Virus record (IMG/VR): IMGVR_UViG_3300004481_000017
Location: 3,924 to 67,923 of that record
DNA: 64,000 nt
Strand: one strand, 5' to 3'
From: a virus
Lineage: Duplodnaviria > Caudoviricetes
Every line of letters begins with the position of its first letter. The stretch's first letter is position 1. Shown here piece by piece: positions 3,615 to 63,999 of this stretch. The translations under genes and the position numbers were made by a program. The notes beneath the pieces are model-generated. The model was not told where the DNA came from. It saw only the letters and a list, made by a program, of their open reading frames with translations, and searched no databases.

Positions 3615-4457
3615 GTGGCTCAAGTACAGCTAATCAAGGTCGGAACGGCTGTCACGCTGACTGGCGCGGCGAGCACGGCTGACTCCGCGCGTCTCTACTC
3701 CATCGGGCTTGGCGTGAACGCTGATACGGCATCGCCCGGGTCGTTGCTACTTGCCGATGCGTCAACGAACAAGGCTCACATCGACCTAACCAACGGCGAT
3801 TCTGTCGCAGTTTCAGCATCGAACCACGGGAAAATTCGTTTTGACTCCGGAGCGAATCTCTTGGAGTTCAGCGAAGACACCGGCGCGTTCATGCCGGTGG
3901 GGACTGCGCGAGGTCCGGTTTCATCGACGGACAAGGGCATCGTCACGTTCAGTGGCACTACCGGTAAGAGCCTGCAGAGCCCCGGACAAAGGTACTACGG
4001 TGGTAGCGCCACCGACCCGTCGAGCCCGACCCCCGCCGACGGCGATATGTACTACAACACGTCGCTGCGCGAGCTGATGACCTACGACGGGGGCCGCTCG
4101 AAGTGGCTCAGCATCGCGCAGATGACGCTCGGTGGCGGGCGGAGTGGCATCACGGCGGCCGGATCGTTCTACCGCGGCTGGGACGGGCTCGCGTACGGAA
4201 CGAACATCGGTCAGCCGGTGCCCAAAGGCACGCTCACCGGTCTCGCCTGGACGAGGACCGACAGTGACTCGGCGACGCTGGAGGTGTTGGTCGGCGGATC
4301 CGTCATCGCCACGTTGCTGAGCACGGCTTCGGGTGGCACCTTCAACTGGGCGGTCAACGCAGACTTCAACGAAGGGCTGATGCAGTTCCGAAACTTGTCC
4401 ACGGGGAACGCGACCTCCGATGTCCAGATCACCGCGGTCATGAAGAGGAGGGTGTAG
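3615..4457 (+). CDS. Putative virion structural protein (280 aa)
   Basis: G/S/T-rich; ADGDMYYNTSLRELMTYDGGRSKW is a typical fibre-type motif. Confidence 0.7.
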   Translation: MAQVQLIKVGTAVTLTGAASTADSARLYSIGLGVNADTASPGSLLLADASTNKAHIDLTNGDSVAVSASNHGKIRFDSGANLLEFSEDTGAFMPVGTARGPVSSTDKGIVTFSGTTGKSLQSPGQRYYGGSATDPSSPTPADGDMYYNTSLRELMTYDGGRSKWLSIAQMTLGGGRSGITAAGSFYRGWDGLAYGTNIGQPVPKGTLTGLAWTRTDSDSATLEVLVGGSVIATLLSTASGGTFNWAVNADFNEGLMQFRNLSTGNATSDVQITAVMKRRV

Positions 4458-33733: not shown

Positions 33734-33757
33734 GGCTTTCGCTCCTTCTGGTCGCTG

Positions 33758-34048
33758 CTAGCTTGTGGCAACCCGACTGCGCTTGCGAGCCGCTCGCACC
33801 GCGACGGTCGAGCCATTCCTGGTTGCGATGCGGTAGTCGGGAGCGCAAGCGCGCTCCGGTATGAACACGTCGTGCGTGCCTTCCTGGCACCCCCACGCGT
33901 TGTCGTCCTCGAACCCGTGGCCATCGTCAGCCCTCCAGACGGCGGCGGCGATGGCATCATCCGTTGCCGAGCAGTTGTCAGGAACGGCCACGATCACGGT
34001 CTTGGTCTGGCGGACCAACATCGCCAGCTCGACGACTACTTTACGCAT
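33758..34048 (-). CDS. Hypothetical protein (96 aa)
   Basis: Operon context. Confidence 0.65.
   Translation of the reverse strand: MRKVVVELAMLVRQTKTVIVAVPDNCSATDDAIAAAVWRADDGHGFEDDNAWGCQEGTHDVFIPERACAPDYRIATRNGSTVAVRAARKRSRVATS
33761..33780 (-). repeat. 20-bp junction motif, copy 1
   Basis: Minus strand GCAGTCGGGTTGCCACAAGC; 27 nt before ATG 33733. Confidence 0.8.
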
Positions 34049-35835: not shown

Positions 35836-36587
35836 TTGGCACCTCCTTCGATGTCCTCGGGCTTCACGAGCGGCTCGCTCGTGCGGAAGAACGCATCGCG
35901 CTCCTGGCGCTCCAGCTCCCTGGGCAGCGCCCTGAGCGCAGCGGCCACGGCTTCTGGCGCGATGGTCGACCCGTCGTGCATCTTGGGCACGTTTTGCGGT
36001 GCGTTCTGCACCTCGGCCGCGACCGTCTTGGCCTGCACGAAGCACTCCGTGTGATACTCGGCTTCGAGCGCTGCGAGCCGCTGCTTGTACCTGCACACCT
36101 TGTCGGCGCGCTCGCGCGCGTCCGCCGCCCAGTGGCCGGCGAGTTGGCACGCTACGTTAGCGGCCGACTCGGCCACCGTCCGCGAGCGCCAGGCAGCCAG
36201 GCCCATTTGGAAGGCGTGGACCAAGGCCGCCTCGATGTTCGCGGCTCCAGCCGCAGCCATGAACGCGTCTCGGTCGGTCACGACGTCGGCCGCCCGCTTG
36301 GCAGTCAGCCGCACCTCGAAGCTGGCGGCGAGCGTGTAGCGGCGCAGCTCTTCGCTCCAGCGCGACATGCCCGAGAACGCGGCGCGCTCGACCGACAGCG
36401 GGCCGGCGCAAAGCGCCTTGGCGGTCTTGTCGGTCGCGTCGGCCACGAACCCGGCGGCGCGCTGGGCGTTGTCCTCGCCGGGGTCGGCCTCGACCGACAC
36501 GTACAGCAGAGCGTGGTACGTGTCGCGCTTGAGCCGTCGCGTTTGCGTGCGCAGCTCGCTGGTCCACTTGGTCGTGATTTCGTTCAT
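35832..36587 (-). CDS. Hypothetical Ala-rich helical protein (251 aa)
   Basis: SD GGAGG. Confidence 0.7.
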   Translation of the reverse strand: MNEITTKWTSELRTQTRRLKRDTYHALLYVSVEADPGEDNAQRAAGFVADATDKTAKALCAGPLSVERAAFSGMSRWSEELRRYTLAASFEVRLTAKRAADVVTDRDAFMAAAGAANIEAALVHAFQMGLAAWRSRTVAESAANVACQLAGHWAADARERADKVCRYKQRLAALEAEYHTECFVQAKTVAAEVQNAPQNVPKMHDGSTIAPEAVAAALRALPRELERQERDAFFRTSEPLVKPEDIEGGAK

Positions 36588-36608
36588 GTCGTCCTCCGAT
36601 GGTTGCCA

Positions 36609-36628
36609 GCTTGTGGCAACCCGGCTGC
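36609..36628 (-). repeat. 20-bp junction motif, copy 2
   Basis: GCAGCCGGGTTGCCACAAGC directly after the TGA; 21 nt before ATG 36587. Confidence 0.8.
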
Positions 36629-36913
36629 TCAGTCGGCGCCGCTCAGGTTGGGCACGCAGTCGGAGTCGTCCGCGCAGTGCTCGGCCAACTCCTGCAACTC
36701 GTCGAGCACCGTGCGCAGGCGCGCTACGCGCGCCTCGTGCTCAGCCCTGGCTGCTCGCCACGCATCGTCTCCGAGCGGGTAGTAGTCCCGTTGGTTGGGC
36801 GCAGCCTCGCCGAGCTTGCGCAGGGCGTCCATCACGGCCCCGCCAGCGTTGCAGTACAGGTCGACGAGCCGCGAGCGGCCCGTGCCGTTGATGTGGACGA
36901 ATGGCGTTTGCAT
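36629..36913 (-). CDS. Conserved phage hypothetical protein
   Basis: P.VHINGT...PNQRDYYP motif; SD GAGGAG. Confidence 0.75.
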   Translation of the reverse strand: MQTPFVHINGTGRSRLVDLYCNAGGAVMDALRKLGEAAPNQRDYYPLGDDAWRAARAEHEARVARLRTVLDELQELAEHCADDSDCVPNLSGAD

Positions 36914-36914
36914 G

Positions 36915-37241
36915 TCACTCCTCGAACACGCCGCTGGCCCGCTGCCCGAGCGGCGTCGTGATGTGGAAGTCGCAGCCGTACCAAAGCCAGGGCTTCCGCA
37001 GCCGTTGCCGGAAGGCCGCGAGCGCCTTGCCCACGGCGTCCCCGGAGCCGTCGTAATAGGCGACCACGGTGCGAGTCCGCCGGTCGGGCATGGTCGCGCT
37101 CATGCGCGCGACGCAAGGCCACGGCTCGGCGGACACACGTGCGCACGACGCGCATGCGTCCGGTGCGTCGGGCTCGCCGTTGCCGTCCCGCCCGAGCGCG
37201 ACGACGCTGGCCGTCTTACGTCCGCAGATGTCGCAGTGCAT
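36915..37241 (-). CDS. Hypothetical Zn-binding protein
   Basis: CDIC..CASC; SD GGAGG. Confidence 0.55.
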   Translation of the reverse strand: MHCDICGRKTASVVALGRDGNGEPDAPDACASCARVSAEPWPCVARMSATMPDRRTRTVVAYYDGSGDAVGKALAAFRQRLRKPWLWYGCDFHITTPLGQRASGVFEE

Positions 37242-37367
37242 GGTCCCTCCAGAGCGCACCTCGGCGCCAGCGTGCGCCCACGAGCCGGGGGGAAGCTCCC
37301 AACCCGTGGGCGCACGGCGGCGTCGAGCACCACCGGCAACACGCAGGCGCGTGTTGCGTGCGTGTTG

Positions 37368-38276
37368 CTAGGCTGCCTCGTCGTCGAGCCGGAACTTGCG
37401 CCGGGGGGCGTCGGCCGTGACCAGCGTGGCGGCAGCTTCCTTGATCTGGCCGAGCTGGTTCGCGGCCCACTTGCGCAGGCTCGCATCCTCGCGCAGGTCG
37501 TCGGCGTTGGTGCCTTCGAGCAGGGTGCGCGCCTTGCCAACCAGATCGGCCAGCTCGTTGTCCTCCGAGATGTTCTTGGCGTCAAAGAGCGAGATCCACT
37601 CCTTGAGGCTTTCCACCCGTGAGTCTCGGAAAATCTTGGGCTTGCCGCCATCACGCTCGCCGTCGAGCCGCTCGCGGAGCGACTCAATCAACGCTGCGAA
37701 CGCCTGGCGCATGCTGGAACGCCACTCCGCGGCAGTGTCCTGCATTTCGGACTTGAAAACCTCGCGCTGCTTGTCGAGCAAGGCGGTGGAGATTGCGCCC
37801 AGCGCAGCGGGCTCCCCGATCTGCTCGAAGTTAGCGCGCACCTTCCAGGCTTCGACGAACTTCTCGCGCGAGGGATAGTCCGCTCGGTCGAACATCGGGC
37901 CGAGCCGCTTTGCGTCGTCGGCGATGATGTTGGGCAGATCGTCGGCCAGGTCGAGCACCATGCGCTCGCGCACGGGCTTCCACGACTCGATGATGTCGAT
38001 GGCCCGCTCCACGACGCCAAGGGGCATGAAGATGCACCCTTCCGCGTAGGCGAAACCCAGCGACTTGAGCCGAGCGCGGCACTTGCCGTCGCCCTTCACG
38101 ATGTCTTTGGCCGCCTTGGACTCCAAGAGCTTCTTGGTTACGCGCACCGCCTGCTCGGGCACGGCGGCGCCGTCCTTGCAAGCCGTGACCTGGACCTGTG
38201 CGCCGTCCACCTCGCGAGTCGTGCCGAAGCACGAAAATCCGAAGCGCAGAAACGCGCCCTTGTCGATTGCTGACAT
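37368..38276 (-). CDS. DUF3150-like protein (302 aa)
   Basis: VTKKLL, LG.MFDRADYPS, LRERL.G..KIFRDS..ESL pattern; last gene of the AAA module. Confidence 0.65.
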   Translation of the reverse strand: MSAIDKGAFLRFGFSCFGTTREVDGAQVQVTACKDGAAVPEQAVRVTKKLLESKAAKDIVKGDGKCRARLKSLGFAYAEGCIFMPLGVVERAIDIIESWKPVRERMVLDLADDLPNIIADDAKRLGPMFDRADYPSREKFVEAWKVRANFEQIGEPAALGAISTALLDKQREVFKSEMQDTAAEWRSSMRQAFAALIESLRERLDGERDGGKPKIFRDSRVESLKEWISLFDAKNISEDNELADLVGKARTLLEGTNADDLREDASLRKWAANQLGQIKEAAATLVTADAPRRKFRLDDEAA

Positions 38277-38324
38277 GATTGCTTCCCCTTCCCGCGGCCC
38301 GTCGTGGGCCGCTGAAACTTGTTC

Positions 38325-38344
38325 GCTCGTGGCGACCCGGCTGC
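38325..38344 (-). repeat. 20-bp junction motif, copy 3
   Basis: GCAGCCGGGTCGCCACGAGC; 9 nt after stop 38354 and 48 nt before ATG 38276. Confidence 0.75.
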
Positions 38345-38353
38345 GCCGGGCGC

Positions 38354-38584
38354 CTACTTCGCGCCCGCTTTCGCGTGGTCGTGCTCATGCGCGTGGGCGT
38401 GCGCATGCGCGTGCGTGTGCCCGACGTGCGAGCGCTCTTCGACGGCAACGCCCAGCTCGCCGAGCAGGGCAGCCATGAAGCCTTCCGCCGTGGCGTGCGT
38501 CGCGCCCGCGAAAGAGCCCGTTTCGATGCGGATTCTGCCGTCCGGCAGGATCACGATCTCCAGGGTGTTGACCGGCTGCGCCAT
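38354..38584 (-). CDS. DUF2997-like protein with His-rich tail
   Basis: LEIVILPDGRIRIETGSFAG..H..A..F...LG; GHTHAHAHAHAHEHDH. Confidence 0.7.
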   Translation of the reverse strand: MAQPVNTLEIVILPDGRIRIETGSFAGATHATAEGFMAALLGELGVAVEERSHVGHTHAHAHAHAHEHDHAKAGAK

Positions 38585-38586
38585 TG

Positions 38587-38946
38587 CTACCTCCCAAGGA
38601 CGATGCGACGAGCACCGCCCAGTAGTTGCTCCGCTCCCTTGACCTGGAAGCCGAAACGAGCCGACACGTCAGCCACGGTGCGCGCCGCATAAGCGCGCTT
38701 CACGCTGGCCAGCACCGACTCCGCAGTCTCGGTCCCGTAACCCGTGGTCACGCTGGCGCCTTGAGCGCTCACGCGGACAGACACGCCGTTGCGGCTCGCG
38801 GTAATGACGCGCGAGTCGAGCGTGGCCGTGGCCTCGCCCGTGATCGTCACAGTCCACCCGTCGTCGCGCATGGCCGCCGCGAGCCGGCCGCGGTTGACCG
38901 CTACCAGCTCGGGGGCCGTCGTGCGGATTCTCGTGTCGCAGGGCAT
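38587..38946 (-). CDS. DUF1257/Ycf35-like protein
   Basis: L..AM...GW..., VKRAYA..TV....RFGF.V...RIVL; lies between the AAA and DUF2997-like genes. Confidence 0.6.
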   Translation of the reverse strand: MPCDTRIRTTAPELVAVNRGRLAAAMRDDGWTVTITGEATATLDSRVITASRNGVSVRVSAQGASVTTGYGTETAESVLASVKRAYAARTVADVSARFGFQVKGAEQLLGGARRIVLGR

Positions 38947-38947
38947 G

Positions 38948-40501
38948 TTACTCTCCCGCTTTGATGCGTCGGCCGCCCGCCGCGACGACGGGCGCCGTCT
39001 CGGTGGACTCGTCCTGCGTGCCGCGGTAGAGCCCGGCGTAGCTCGTGGACAAGTACGCGCCGCGCGCTTGCGCCCGCAGATCCGCGAGCCGGCCCGCGAA
39101 CGATGCAGACGCCGGGGCATAGACCGCCATGACGGCAGCAACCGAGACGCCGTGTTGCTTCGCGCGTCGGCACACGTTGCGCACGTCCGCGCCCGCGTAC
39201 CCGCGATCCGCCTTGGGGTTGGGCACCGAGTCGCCGAGCCCGTACTTGCCAATGTAGAGCGCCCACAGCGCGGCGCGCTCGTCTGGCCCTGGGAGATCCG
39301 CGTACCAGATCCCGTCAGTGAAGCGCCGCAGCAGCTCACCAGGAACCTGCCCGAGCCCGTTCGACGTCGCGATCCAGTAGCAGCGCCCAGCGAGCGCGCG
39401 GATCGTCGACATGGCCGTCGCGGCGTTGCCTTCAGTCTCGCCCACAATGCCGCCCTTGAGATTCTGTGGCATGAATTGGATCACGGGGATAGAGCCCGCT
39501 CCACCGAGGGCACGTGCCATCAGCGACTTGCCCGTCCCCGGAGCGCCGACGAACACAAGCCCCTCGGATTCGGACGACTCCATTTCATCGAGCATGCCGG
39601 CCAGGATCGACTGGCTCGTGCCGCTGCTATCAGCAACGGCGCCAGACGAGCCCGCTAGCACCTTCTCGATTTCATCGATCCAGATGATCGCGTCGGGGCG
39701 GAAGTCGCCCGACATGACCAGGCGAATGTGATCTTTGGCGGAAGCGTGCCCGGCCACCGCGTCGAGCGGCGTACCGTCACCGCCGTCGCTTTCGACGCGC
39801 AGCCCCTTGACGCGGCCCACCGCGTCGCGCCAGGTCTTGCGCATGACGTCGAGCTGCAAACCGTCCTTGGCGGTTGCCAGGCTCGTGACCTGCTCGGCTG
39901 CGAACCGGGCGAGCCCGCGCGTGTACGTCGCGGCTCGCGCCAGGGTGGCGTCGTCCACCTTAAGATTCGCGCTTTCGGCGAGGGCGACGATAGTCGCTCG
40001 CCGCTCCTGCTCGTCGGGCAGCGGATCGTCAATCACGTGGACGTCATTGCCCAGCTCTGCGGCAGGCGCCCAGCTCGGCCCGAGCGCGACAAGCTGCCGG
40101 CCTGAGTCGGCAAAGACGTCCCGCAGCCACAAGGCAGCAAGCGCCGGCTTGGGCTCAGCGAGCGCCCGGTTGCCCGCGGCGAGCACCACAAGCGTGTCCG
40201 CAGGCACCGCTTGCGACCGCTGCAAGGCAGTAACCGGGTCGGTGCAGATGGACGGGTCCATCTGCTTACGCTGGGGGGGGCCGCCATACTGCTCGTCCGG
40301 TACTTCGACCGTGAGCATGGCCGCCACCGCTTCCTTGCCGGCCTTGTTCAGGGCCAGCGCGCCACGCACCGGGTCGAGCAGCACCGCAGGGCGGTCGACC
40401 GCCGCCAGCTTGCGGATTACCGCAGGCTGGTCAGGCGTGCGAACCGCTACCAGCGGCACGCCGCGCCGGTGGGCGTGGTCAAGCTCCTTGAGCAGGTCCA
40501 T
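38948..40501 (-). CDS. Ycf46-like AAA+ ATPase with Walker B block placed before Walker A
   Basis: Inactive N-terminal AAA-like domain; IIWIDEIEK (39690-39662) precedes GAPGTGKS (39547-39524); then IATSN, ELLRRF, DLP..ER. Confidence 0.88.
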   Translation of the reverse strand: MDLLKELDHAHRRGVPLVAVRTPDQPAVIRKLAAVDRPAVLLDPVRGALALNKAGKEAVAAMLTVEVPDEQYGGPPQRKQMDPSICTDPVTALQRSQAVPADTLVVLAAGNRALAEPKPALAALWLRDVFADSGRQLVALGPSWAPAAELGNDVHVIDDPLPDEQERRATIVALAESANLKVDDATLARAATYTRGLARFAAEQVTSLATAKDGLQLDVMRKTWRDAVGRVKGLRVESDGGDGTPLDAVAGHASAKDHIRLVMSGDFRPDAIIWIDEIEKVLAGSSGAVADSSGTSQSILAGMLDEMESSESEGLVFVGAPGTGKSLMARALGGAGSIPVIQFMPQNLKGGIVGETEGNAATAMSTIRALAGRCYWIATSNGLGQVPGELLRRFTDGIWYADLPGPDERAALWALYIGKYGLGDSVPNPKADRGYAGADVRNVCRRAKQHGVSVAAVMAVYAPASASFAGRLADLRAQARGAYLSTSYAGLYRGTQDESTETAPVVAAGGRRIKAGE

Positions 40502-40599
40502 GTGCGTTGCTCCCATGCGGCAACCCGATGTTGCCGCGGTCGTGGTGCCTCGCCAGCACGCGAGCGTTGCTCACGCGCTAGCGGCGCATCACGCGCCGG

Positions 40600-40935
40600 T
40601 CAGTCGTCGTCGCACGGCCAGAAGCCGAGCAGGGCGCCGTCCCCAGGGTGGGCGCCAAAGTACGTGCCAGCGGGCGCGTGCTCGCTCAGCAACTCGAAGA
40701 GCGACTCTGCTAGCTCGCACGCGTCGTCGCTTGCCCACCAGTCGCTGCTCTCGTCCTCGGCAGCGTAGCTTGGCAGGGCCGAGAACCCGGCACCGGGGCA
40801 GACACACTGCTGGTAGGCTTCCGGCGCCAGCTCGCGCAAGGCGTCGAGCATGGCCGGGATTGTGTCCTGCCGGCGCATGGTGCCCTCGCTGACCGTTGCC
40901 GCCCCATAGGCGGCTAGCTGGCTCGCGACGCTCAT
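40600..40935 (-). CDS. Conserved phage hypothetical protein
   Basis: GTMR..D.IP.ML..L...AP.GTYFGAHPGDG...GFW motif. Confidence 0.8.
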   Translation of the reverse strand: MSVASQLAAYGAATVSEGTMRRQDTIPAMLDALRELAPEAYQQCVCPGAGFSALPSYAAEDESSDWWASDDACELAESLFELLSEHAPAGTYFGAHPGDGALLGFWPCDDD

Positions 40936-41585
40936 GGCTCCACCATCAGGTCGACCGGCACGGGGCCGGCGCCGAGCGTCTGCCCCGCCTTCCGATACAT
41001 GCGCAGGACGATCTTCTGCTCTGCCGTGGCGTCGTCGCCTGCGTCGCGGATGCGGCGCAAGCTATCCCACAGGGCCGACGTGCCTTGCGCATACTCGCGA
41101 GCAGTCTGGCCCAGCTTGTTTACGATGCGCGAGTCCAGCTCACGGTCCCTCGTTTCCGGGTCGAGCAGCGTTTCGGCGTAGCGGCGCGCTTCAGCACGAA
41201 CGTGCATGAACGCCGGGTGACGTTCGCTCGGTCGGTCGTGCGGGTCACGCACAACGCCACCGCTTAGCTCGAAAAGCGGGGATTTGGCGCCATGGGAGAA
41301 GAGCATTTCGGCGAGGGCCAGCCGATCCCGCTCGACCGTCAGGTCAAGCGGCTCGTCATACCCGCACGAGGAGAGCGCGCTCGCCACCGTCTCGGGCGAA
41401 GCGCCCGCCAAGTCGACGGTCGCAACGCTCGCGACGAAGAGCGCATCCGCGTCGCGCCCACAGTACGCGGGCAGGTCAATTACCTCGACGAACACATACG
41501 TGCTCCCCGAGGCGCGCACGTAGAGCCACTGATCGGACCCGCCATCGGCGAGCACCGTCCAGTGGCGAGCGTACTTCCCTCGCAT
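40932..41585 (-). CDS. Hypothetical protein, first gene of the leftward cluster
   Basis: ATG 41585 after GGAGGGAAG. Confidence 0.75.
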   Translation of the reverse strand: MRGKYARHWTVLADGGSDQWLYVRASGSTYVFVEVIDLPAYCGRDADALFVASVATVDLAGASPETVASALSSCGYDEPLDLTVERDRLALAEMLFSHGAKSPLFELSGGVVRDPHDRPSERHPAFMHVRAEARRYAETLLDPETRDRELDSRIVNKLGQTAREYAQGTSALWDSLRRIRDAGDDATAEQKIVLRMYRKAGQTLGAGPVPVDLMVEP

Positions 41586-41823: not shown

Positions 41824-41968
41824 ATTCGCGGCTCGGTAGGGTGCCGGCCGCGCTGTACCTGTTAGCTCGCTCCGTTCTGCGCTTGCGCGCCGTTGTGCCC
41901 GTGGCGCTCTATGCTGCCGCGGTATTGCTGCCCGCCGACTTTCGTCGCCGTGCTTACGAACGCTGCTA

Positions 41969-41988
41969 TCCGGTGGCGACCCGGTTGC
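41969..41988 (-). repeat. 20-bp motif, degenerate copy (15/20)
   Basis: GCAACCGGGTCGCCACCGGA. Confidence 0.55.
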
Positions 41989-42022
41989 CCGAGCCCTCCG
42001 TTTGCGTTCACACCCGCTGCTG

Positions 42023-42042
42023 GCTTGTGGCAACCCGGATGC
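42023..42042 (-). repeat. 20-bp motif, copy 4
   Basis: GCATCCGGGTTGCCACAAGC. Confidence 0.8.
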
Positions 42043-42054
42043 GAACCGCGGTGC

Positions 42055-62448: not shown

Positions 62449-63999
62449 CTACACGGCCTTGCGGATCCAGTCGAGGTACTGGTCCATCGGGAAGCCCTTG
62501 CCCGGATCGACGTGCGTGCCGCCCATCGCGAGCGTGACCGCGTGATGCGTCGTCACGCCCCGAAACTCGTCGGGCAGCGGTCGGTTCTTGTCGAGGTACT
62601 CGCGCTTGGCTTCCTTCAGCATGTCGGCCGTGATGTGCTGCACGGGCAGGTTCCAACGAGGCACGGTGACCTTCGCGGCGACCTTCGCGCTGATCCAAAG
62701 CATGTTGGCGCTGTAGTCGTCGAGCCATTCCTCGCGCGTCTGCCGGGCCCAGCCTGCGTGCTCGTAGCCCACGCCGAAGCGGTTGGCGGCCTTCGCGTGC
62801 CAGGCGATGTGCTCCTCGGGCACGCAGATGACGGCGCTGTCGCAGTCGAACGCCCAGTGCCAGCTCGCCTTCGGCGCGGGGCCTCGTCGGCCGGCGCCCC
62901 ACGCAGCGACCGACTCCGCCGTGCTCGGCTTCTCGGCGGCTTCCATCGAATGGATCACGATCCAGTGCACGAGCGATCGGTTCGCGATCGTGTAGTTCGC
63001 AGCCAAGATCGTCTCGGCCTGGTCGACCTCGAAATCGCCGAGCAGGAGCCCCGGGCCGACGACGACGGTGTTCGGCAGGATCTCGTTCATCGCGGCCTTG
63101 CGCGTCAACGGTCCGACGACGCCGTCCGCCTTCAGCCCGTGAGCTGCCTGCCACGACTTGGTCGCCGTCTCGGTCTTGAACCCGAAGACGCCGTCCGGCT
63201 TGGCGCCCACGACCGTCTGCCACGCGGCGACGTCCTCGCCGATGGAGCCAACGCGCAGCGTTCGGTCGAACACGGGTTTGCCCGACGGCGTCGTAACAGG
63301 CGTGTCCTCGCTCGTTGGTTCGTGATCTCCAGGGGCCGACACGCCGGGGTGACGCATCGCCCAGAGCACCCCCTCGGCCGAGACGAGCGCCGAGAGCACG
63401 GGGTCTTTCGCCACGTCCTCGATGTCCATGAAGACGCCGTCGATCCACACCTCCCGCTTCCAGAGCACGACGACCTGGATGTAGTCGTGGTGTTTGTCGT
63501 TGTGCTTGAGCCCCGGCTCGGGCTGCCAGAGCCGTCCGCCCTCTTTCGTCGCCGCCTGGCTCGGCGCCTTCGGATCGTAGAGGCCGTAGTTCGAGCTGAG
63601 CGCGGGCTTGCCGCGAAGCTTGTTCGTGCAGCGCCAGTTCTTGCCGACGGGCTCCGAGATCCCTTTGCGGCCGGCAATGGCTTTCTCGACGTCGTCGTGG
63701 TGGCGGATGACGGCGCCGTTGTCCTTCATGTTCGGGCTGTAGCCCCGGGTCGCCCGCTCGGCCGGATCGGCGGGCTGCGTACAGGGCGGCAGCTTGTTCG
63801 CGGCAGCCGCCCAACGCAGATCGCTCATCTTCGCCGTCGGCAGTACGAAGCCGAGCTTGTCGGCGATGCGCTGGGCCGTTGGGTGCGTGCAGGTGATGCG
63901 GACGGGGTCCTCGGTCCCGATCATGAACGCATCGGTCGCCACCTTGAGGATCGCCGCCCGACCGCCGACGCGGGAGTAGACGTCCGCCCACTCGATGGG
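62449..63999 (-). CDS. Modular endolysin (5' partial): unknown domain, PG-binding domain, Amidase_2
   Basis: Frame open to the window edge; LRVGS.GEDV..WQ..V...DG.FG..T...WQ...GL.ADG.VG..T; IVIHSMEA, ASWH, AWHA, THH, HVDPG. Confidence 0.9.
   Translation of the reverse strand, partial: PIEWADVYSRVGGRAAILKVATDAFMIGTEDPVRITCTHPTAQRIADKLGFVLPTAKMSDLRWAAAANKLPPCTQPADPAERATRGYSPNMKDNGAVIRHHDDVEKAIAGRKGISEPVGKNWRCTNKLRGKPALSSNYGLYDPKAPSQAATKEGGRLWQPEPGLKHNDKHHDYIQVVVLWKREVWIDGVFMDIEDVAKDPVLSALVSAEGVLWAMRHPGVSAPGDHEPTSEDTPVTTPSGKPVFDRTLRVGSIGEDVAAWQTVVGAKPDGVFGFKTETATKSWQAAHGLKADGVVGPLTRKAAMNEILPNTVVVGPGLLLGDFEVDQAETILAANYTIANRSLVHWIVIHSMEAAEKPSTAESVAAWGAGRRGPAPKASWHWAFDCDSAVICVPEEHIAWHAKAANRFGVGYEHAGWARQTREEWLDDYSANMLWISAKVAAKVTVPRWNLPVQHITADMLKEAKREYLDKNRPLPDEFRGVTTHHAVTLAMGGTHVDPGKGFPMDQYLDWIRKAV

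Follow-up and report, generated by a model that had tools for sequence, protein, structure and literature searches.

A Ycf46-type AAA+ ATPase with its Walker B block placed before Walker A, encoded in a four-gene module

The closest described systems

Ycf46 of cyanobacteria and plastids is a housekeeping AAA+ protein with the normal order of core elements, and its gene is accompanied by genes of the DUF1257 (Ycf35) and DUF2997 families. Here, we describe a Ycf46-type AAA+ ATPase in which the Walker B block precedes the Walker A block. It is encoded in a 64,000-nucleotide stretch of DNA (hereafter the window), which corresponds to positions 3,924 to 67,923 of the IMG/VR virus contig IMGVR_UViG_3300004481_000017 (67,923 bp). 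The window ATPase is homologous to cyanobacterial and plastid Ycf46 over its full length except for the order of these blocks, and DUF1257- and DUF2997-like genes likewise lie beside it, together with a DUF3150-like gene. We know of no DUF3150 partner for the cyanobacterial or plastid protein. The genomic setting differs as well: Ycf46 is a cellular and plastid gene, whereas the permuted ATPase rides on mobile elements.

The group placed nearest to the permuted proteins on our trees consists of normal-order Ycf46-type ATPases found with DUF1257, DUF2997 and DUF3150 genes. These proteins are also about 500 amino acids (aa) long and have the N-terminal domain and catalytic motifs of the permuted ones, in many cases with the gene order as well. 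In the representative encoded by a plasmid of Candidatus Manganitrophus (CP114559.1; WDT77853.1 to WDT77850.1), Walker A lies at residue 249, Walker B at 304 and sensor 1 at 347, and the ATPase gene is followed by genes annotated by NCBI as DUF1257, DUF2997 and DUF3150, and then by a gene for a small 'RASKVEP' protein. Apart from the block order, the normal-order relatives differ in having a linker between helix 0 and strand 1 that is longer by 6-10 residues, and arginines spaced as R..R.

Cdc48/p97, Vps4, spastin and katanin are the best sequence and structure matches of the window ATPase. They have in common with it the second region of homology (SRH), the position of pore loop 1 and the lid motif, but differ in their canonical order of elements, an aromatic pore loop, and other N-terminal domains and cofactors.

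The closest precedent in kind is provided by circularly permuted GTPases, i.e. the YRG/YlqF/YjeQ proteins with motif order G4-G5-G1-G2-G3 and cpRAS with G3-G4-G5-G1-G2 (PMC2430557). These are also P-loop nucleoside triphosphatases, whose motif order has changed while the GTPase fold and activity are kept. However, their permutation is circular, creates new termini and concerns the TRAFAC class, whereas in the window ATPase, a member of AAA+ (ASCE), internal segments are exchanged and the termini are unchanged.

Block order in the window ATPase and its relatives

The ATPase gene and the parts of its product are as follows:

38948..40501, minus strand: gene of the permuted Ycf46-type AAA+ ATPase, 517 aa plus stop (open reading frame (ORF), Shine-Dalgarno sequence, PF00004 match, AlphaFold2 (AF2) model)
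39806..40501, minus strand: N-terminal domain, residues ~1-232, an alpha/beta fold without a P-loop (VIA-align and profile match)
39695..39805, minus strand: entry of the AAA module, residues ~233-269, a short strand and helix 0 (alignment with normal-order relatives, DSSP)
39569..39694, minus strand: block B, residues 270-311 (42 aa), with strand 3, Walker B, the DSSG.SQ loop and helix 3
39389..39568, minus strand: block A, residues 312-371 (60 aa), from strand 1 through helix 2, with the P-loop and pore loop 1
38951..39388, minus strand: residues 372-517, with strand 4, sensor 1, two arginines, strand 5, the helical lid and a disordered tail

The ORF spans 38948..40516 on the minus strand and its reading frame is unbroken. 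An alternative upstream ATG is present at 40516; the ATG at 40501 is the likelier start, with GGGAG located 8 nt 5' of it, and yields the 517-aa protein (P0001) whose residue numbers are used throughout. The block coordinates were confirmed by translation of 39569-39694 (block B) and 39389-39568 (block A).

The AAA module opens with the counterpart of the 'DIGGL..K' region of classical AAA proteins, in which DSSP assigns a strand to residues 234-238 and a helix to residues 253-264. Block B carries the Walker B motif IIWIDE at 272-277 (D276, E277). It is followed by block A, whose elements are, in order, strand 1, the Walker A P-loop (GAPGTGKS, residues 319-326, the canonical sequence), helix 1, strand 2, pore loop 1 (K349..I352 V353 G354) and helix 2. 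Beyond the two blocks lie sensor 1 (N381, on strand 4), the arginines R392 and R393, and the lid motif G.(S/T)GA(D/E). The canonical AAA+ order of Walker A, Walker B and sensor 1 is not found in this protein.

A phmmer search against the PDB aligned three parts of the protein with yeast Cdc48: residues 315-375 with 519-579 of the D2 domain (Walker A), residues 276-325 with 582-632 (Walker B), and residues 385-458 with 633-710 (sensor 1 to lid). These pieces are out of sequence: along the chain, Walker B comes first, then Walker A and then sensor 1. A profile built from 37 normal-order Ycf46-like proteins (P0074-P0110) matched the native protein in four pieces (profile positions 1-197, 321-363, 257-325 and 364-491; 179 bits). 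After in-silico exchange of residues 270-311 with 312-371, the same profile gave a single collinear match over positions 1-491 (227.5 bits). The de-permuted sequence aligns with the normal-order relatives column by column and differs from them in length only by its shorter linker ahead of strand 1. At the level of single residues the swap is clean, and it accounts for the fragmentary matches that standard domain models give with permuted proteins; PF00004, for example, matches the window ATPase in two stretches only (41.3 bits).

On these grounds, we consider it very probable that the permutation is a real, non-circular exchange of the adjacent strand-3/helix-3 and strand-1-to-helix-2 units, anciently fixed in a Ycf46-type AAA+ protein.

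A word-indexed search yielded 110 relatives, among them full-length permuted proteins in which Walker B precedes Walker A by about 45 residues (P0001-P0073) and normal-order proteins (P0074-P0110). Pattern scans of IMG/VR found 170 contigs, 80 of which were kept; with a few further loci added, they make up a set of 89 viral loci, and in 88 of these the ATPase is collinear with P0001 over residues 268-382. When prokaryotic genomes were scanned, one per species, at least 115 loci were found. The 80 that were kept comprise 64 collinear with the window protein, 6 cut or broken and 10 of normal order. The genome loci come mostly from Acidobacteriota/Terriglobia, and also from Nitrospirota, Armatimonadota, Planctomycetota, Gemmatimonadota and others. 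A profile search of 1.84 billion cluster representatives (50% identity) returned single collinear matches throughout its best 150 hits (E <= 1e-167), and the ESM Atlas holds many clusters of at least 50 members, mostly viral. When 405 collected proteins were scanned with separate profiles of the two blocks, 359 had block B before block A and 46 the reverse; intermediates (ABA, BAB, ABAB) were looked for among the same 405 proteins and none was found.

The carriers include the cultured phage Tunturi_3 (PP885686.1) of an Acidobacteria host, whose gp103, annotated 'ATPase', has the permuted order; the paper describing the Tunturi phages does not discuss this protein (PMC11924767). The P-loop of gp103 reads GVPGVSKS. 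The complete chromosome of Nitrospira moscoviensis NSP M-1 holds two loci with the swapped order (L111, L119), and one Acidobacteriota metagenome-assembled genome (CAWHRX01) holds six (L100, L103, L104, L110, L145, L150). The presence of several copies per genome suggests multi-copy prophages or integrating elements.

The relationships were analysed with IQ-TREE (quick search, LG+G4), the permuted rows being de-permuted in silico before alignment. In both of two maximum-likelihood trees, which are unrooted, a single branch with a Shimodaira-Hasegawa approximate likelihood ratio test (SH-aLRT) value of 100 separates the permuted proteins from all the rest. A second group with support of 100 contains normal-order proteins of Planctomycetota and relatives (L158-L169, P0076, P0077, P0081), and these normal-order loci carry the same three partner genes; therefore, the four-gene module is older than the swap. 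The swap arose once, its direction being assigned by parsimony, and would have occurred in a lineage already holding the module. The most economical origin would be an internal tandem duplication giving A-B-A-B, from which the outer A and B copies were then lost.

An earlier, sequence-only reading of the window had placed B before A before sensor 1 and held every catalytic motif to be intact. The strings that it quoted occur in that order, the Cdc48 alignment and the profile test agree with it, and Walker A, Walker B, sensor 1 and the arginines are all present. Its suggestion that the B-before-A order may mark a conserved clade, to be checked by collecting homologs and scanning them with separate hidden Markov models of the blocks, is borne out by the single branch with support of 100 and by the 359 of 405 proteins sharing the order. 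On the other hand, its description of a viral machine stands only in part: phages do carry the module, but so do bacterial chromosomes and a plasmid.

Fold, residue constraint and mode of action

The AF2 model of the window ATPase, obtained from a 47-sequence alignment, has a predicted local distance difference test score (pLDDT) of 93 and a predicted template modelling score (pTM) of 0.87, with pLDDT >=95 over the relocated Walker B strand. The modelled C-terminal domain runs from helix 0 through a strand (Walker B), a helix, a strand (P-loop), a helix, a strand, a helix, a strand (sensor 1) and a further strand to the lid. It superposes on Vps4, spastin and p97 D2 with Z ~15 (6bmf_B: Z 15.6, 213 residues aligned, root-mean-square deviation (rmsd) 3.0). 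With VIA-align, the whole model superposes on D1-D2 of p97/Cdc48 (p97 210-763; 7lmz_C) with Z 18.0 over 392 aligned residues (rmsd 4.9), and therefore the N-terminal ~230 residues are taken to form a nucleotide-free, D1-like tier. This domain is homologous to that of normal-order Ycf46-like proteins (profile positions 1-197 match residues 1-215). The protein thus has the build of the Ycf46-like subfamily, i.e. a ~250-aa N-terminal domain of Ycf46-like ancestry and a single C-terminal AAA module.

The canonical parallel sheet of AAA+ proteins has the strand order 5-1-4-3-2 (PMC5039278). The sheet order of the permuted proteins was derived from covariation, using mean-field direct coupling analysis (DCA) of 350 sequences (effective number of sequences 259; 252 columns; 30,417 residue pairs). 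The four neighbour pairs of the 5-1-4-3-2 sheet come before all other strand pairs, with ranks of 10 (5-1), 18 (4-3), 119 (1-4) and 138 (3-2), and the six non-neighbour pairs rank from 183 to 1267. The third strongest coupling joins residues 271 and 371, which are 100 positions apart here and lie at the helix-2/strand-3 junction in normal-order relatives. Helix 3 couples with helix 2, helix 4, strand 4 and pore loop 1, and 28 of the top 100 couplings join block B to elements of the C-terminal domain (strand 4, strand 2, helix 2, pore loop 1 and helix 4). Judged from these couplings, the sheet appears to keep its normal order, with the relocated strand still between strands 4 and 2, and therefore the relocated unit would occupy the usual place of strand 3 and helix 3. 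The sequence-only reading had argued that the swap could be tolerated since strands 1, 4 and 3 adjoin in the sheet, and had proposed structure prediction as a check. The argument fits the 5-1-4-3-2 order and is backed by the covariation, and the prediction gave the confident monomer model described above.

Conservation was counted in 213 distinct permuted proteins, down to ~27% identity. In block B, D276 is kept in 209 of the 213 proteins, and E277 and K280 in all of them. The P-loop residues G319, G322, K325 and S/T326 are each found in 212/213. In pore loop 1, V353 is present in 209 and G354 in 213; further on, N381 occurs in 212, R392 in 198 and R393 in 213 of the 213. The region of the sensor 1 Asn and the arginines aligns with the SRH of Cdc48 and Vps4.

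Five permuted relatives of 653-896 aa contain inteins (C...HN, then C or S). In P0194, P0223 and P0196 the intein interrupts the P-loop, lying either between GPPG and C(A/G)KS or between GTGK and S, and in P0132 and P0252 it interrupts sensor 1, between IAT and CN. Inteins favour sites whose function is destroyed by imprecise loss. Two of the five intein-bearing members have inserts of homing-endonuclease size. The catalytic residues of the permuted clade are thus under strong constraint, and the permuted protein probably hydrolyses ATP.

We propose that only three loops would be re-routed by the swap, i.e. those from helix 0 to strand 3, from helix 3 to strand 1 and from helix 2 to strand 4. 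Each of these loops would lead to a strand that lies one or two positions from the one it originally reached, crossovers would remain right-handed throughout and every helix would keep its face of the sheet. The protein would form a hexamer like those of Cdc48 and Vps4, with ATP bound at the subunit interfaces by K325/S326, D276/E277 and N381, and with R392/R393 supplied by the neighbouring subunit. The aliphatic pore loop (L/I-V-G) would line the central channel, and the nucleotide-free D1-like tier would stack on top as a platform for the three partners. Such a hexameric ring may thread and remodel proteins with the DUF1257-, DUF2997- and DUF3150-like proteins as adaptors or substrates, in the service of phages and integrated elements.

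Several observations weigh against this picture of a permuted but active AAA+ motor. The contig of the window is only ~54% complete according to CheckV. The permuted rows entered the trees only after in-silico de-permutation, and as these trees lack a root, it is parsimony, together with the shared DUF3150 partner, that gives the change its direction from normal to swapped order. The DCA signal is modest for the pairs 1-4 and 3-2, with the non-neighbour pair 1-2 close behind at rank 183. Pore loop 1 is aliphatic and devoid of the usual aromatic residue; residue 324, directly before the P-loop Lys, is Ala in place of Gly in 105 of the 213 permuted proteins (GxxGxAKS); and the arginines are adjacent (RR), in contrast to the R..R of normal-order relatives.

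The contig is a metagenome assembly, and the B-A order might be a misjoin, an inversion or a gene-calling artefact. The probability of this is negligible, as the same junctions recur in 359 independently assembled proteins, including those of a cultured phage and a complete bacterial chromosome, and the reading frame of the ATPase is uninterrupted. It is also highly improbable that the block with the Asp-Glu pair is not strand 3 of the C-terminal domain, but belongs to the N-terminal tier, takes part in a domain swap across subunits or builds a new sheet order. The N-terminal domain is itself AAA-like, and covariation does not separate contacts within a chain from those between chains, so that a domain swap is compatible with it. 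Nevertheless, block B comes after the helix-0 motif with which the C-terminal module opens, more than a quarter of the top 100 couplings tie this block to C-terminal elements, and the high pLDDT on the strand goes together with the superposition of the C-terminal domain on Vps4 and p97 D2.

The atypical pore loop, the Ala before the P-loop Lys and the changed arginine spacing could also be the marks of a pseudo-enzyme, which would bind nucleotide or partners without hydrolysis and act as a scaffold or switch instead of a motor. This is improbable. The Walker B Glu, the sensor 1 Asn and the trans-acting Arg are required for hydrolysis, not for binding, and they are retained in 213, 212 and 213 of the 213 proteins; inteins persist in the P-loop and sensor 1, and the P-loop of the window protein itself is canonical. 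A somewhat better case, although still an unlikely one, can be made for a module acting on DNA or nucleoprotein, in replication, partition or recombination of the element, and not on proteins threaded through a pore. In the window, the module has ParB-like genes, two helicase genes, a mini ComM/YifB ATPase gene, RadC and a large tyrosine recombinase as neighbours, and its carriers are phages, integrated elements and a plasmid. However, the classical AAA clade to which the ATPase belongs (Cdc48, Vps4, spastin, FtsH-like) consists of protein remodellers with an SRH and pore loop 1, and none of the partners has a recognisable DNA-binding fold. We therefore regard a DNA-directed role, suggested by the neighbouring genes alone, as a weaker alternative to protein remodelling.

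The partner genes and the significance of the swap

The three partner genes lie downstream of the ATPase gene, on the same strand:

38587..38946, minus strand: DUF1257-like gene (119 aa), present in 82 of the 89 viral loci
38354..38584, minus strand: DUF2997-like gene (76 aa) with a His-rich C-terminal tail, present in 81 of the 89
37368..38276, minus strand: DUF3150-like gene (302 aa), present in 85 of the 89

Their presence across the viral loci was established by iterated profile searches. The stop of the ATPase gene is separated from the start of the DUF1257-like gene by 1 nt, the DUF2997-like gene follows after 2 nt, and the DUF3150-like gene after a further 77 nt. In the viral loci the partner genes are always on the strand of the ATPase gene, most often in the order ATPase-1257-2997-302 (41 loci) or ATPase-302-1257-2997 (24 loci), with others besides.

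The window proteins themselves match DUF1257 and DUF2997 with E values of 0.005 and 0.01, both under the Pfam cut-offs, and the 302-aa protein has no Pfam match. Their aligned relatives reach the families: DUF3150 (PF11348) is matched by 12 of 41 (best E 1.5e-11), DUF1257 by 4 of 31 (best E 2.7e-7) and DUF2997 by 7 of 34 (best E 1.1e-17). The relative of the 302-aa protein on the Manganitrophus plasmid is annotated DUF3150. The AF2 model of the 302-aa protein (pLDDT 89.8) consists of a small N-terminal sheet and a long helical bundle, and its best match in BFVD is a 'DUF3150 domain-containing protein' (E 3.8e-14, template modelling score 0.73). The naming of DUF1257-, DUF2997- and DUF3150-like neighbours, made earlier from the letters of the window, is thus upheld by transitive profile matches and, for DUF3150, by structure as well.

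Comparison of the DUF3150-like model with the PDB using Foldseek gave no match (best E 0.2), and in a wide VIA-align search the matches were no more than generic helical bundles (best Z 9.2, 112 aligned, rmsd 3.4). Among PDB sequences, no match to any of the three partner-family profiles had an E value below 0.18. Scans of the partners with PADLOC and NCBIfam returned nothing. For the ATPase, NCBIfam gave matches at the P-loop level only, and the sole PADLOC match was of the same kind, to a 39-residue P-loop stretch of IetA (21 bits).

The DUF1257-like partners of the permuted lineage have a near-invariant N-terminal Met-Pro-Cys (38938-38946 in the window, minus strand) and an invariant Y84; the conserved Pro-Cys might be catalytic or metal-binding. 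The C-terminal His-rich run of the DUF2997-like protein, with alternating H-x (38375-38431, minus strand; family consensus HxHxHxH), suggests metal binding. In phage Tunturi_3, the DUF3150-like partner is gp96 (XOB77277.1, L001:9705-10664; 30% identity to the window protein over 98%, E 1e-25), and its annotation as 'HNH endonuclease' looks wrong from the sequence comparison.

An optional fifth gene of ~90 aa, with a K/R-R-A-S-H/K-V-E-P motif ('RASHVEP'), is found in 55 loci (e.g. L043:8350-8589, L166:2861-3112, L170:5873-6127) and accompanies both swapped and normal-order ATPases. It was sought across the whole window and is absent. The flanking genes of the window (111, 238, 114, 94 and 251 aa, and the mini ComM gene) are not conserved beside the module elsewhere, being found in only 1-2 loci each. 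A scan of 36500-41000 for sigma-70 promoters and intrinsic terminators found none.

A ~29-nt repeat with an imperfect hairpin (GGTTGCCA..TGGCAACC, minus strand) is located just 5' of several leftward start codons of the window, with copies at 40505-40533, 38317-38345, 36601-36629, 33753-33781, 41961-41989 and 42015-42043. It precedes the ATPase and DUF3150-like genes, overlapping the Shine-Dalgarno region at the former, and probably has a regulatory role in the window phage, as RNA or as DNA. Elsewhere in the window, an endolysin gene at 62449-63942 (minus strand) matches several PHROG endolysin families (best E 9e-24), which supports a phage origin. The large rightward ORFs tested in the 1-16 kb region matched no PHROG or Pfam structural family.

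Text searches across some 8.4 million papers and preprints found no description of swapped Walker blocks, of the four-gene module or of a DUF3150 function, and as far as can be told, the swap is unpublished. The present analysis newly contributes the sister group of normal order whose partners are identical, the use of covariation to test the sheet, the intein insertions and the D1-like N-terminal tier.

It is conceivable, although we hold it doubtful, that this is the first natural non-circular permutation of an AAA+ core and that it is not neutral, the coupling between nucleotide state and pore loops being altered to give a motor with altered mechanochemistry. In the permuted chain, helix 3, which follows the pore-loop-2 region, feeds strand 1 and the P-loop, and helix 2, which follows pore loop 1, feeds strand 4 and sensor 1. 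If the mechanochemistry were indeed altered, the pore loop with its aliphatic residues and the changed spacing of the arginines would count as co-adaptations, and the normal-order sisters with identical partners would constitute a natural control.

The order of elements in the AAA+ core has been regarded as fixed, and it underlies profile models, classification and mechanistic schemes alike. A large, old and constrained clade that breaks this order implies that the fold tolerates the exchange of its two nucleotide-binding halves. The matched pairs of swapped and normal-order ATPases with the same partners allow a test of the role of covalent connectivity in the allostery of ring ATPases, and the cultured carriers, i.e. 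Tunturi_3 on Tunturiibacter psychrotolerans and Nitrospira moscoviensis, make both the swap and the module experimentally reachable.

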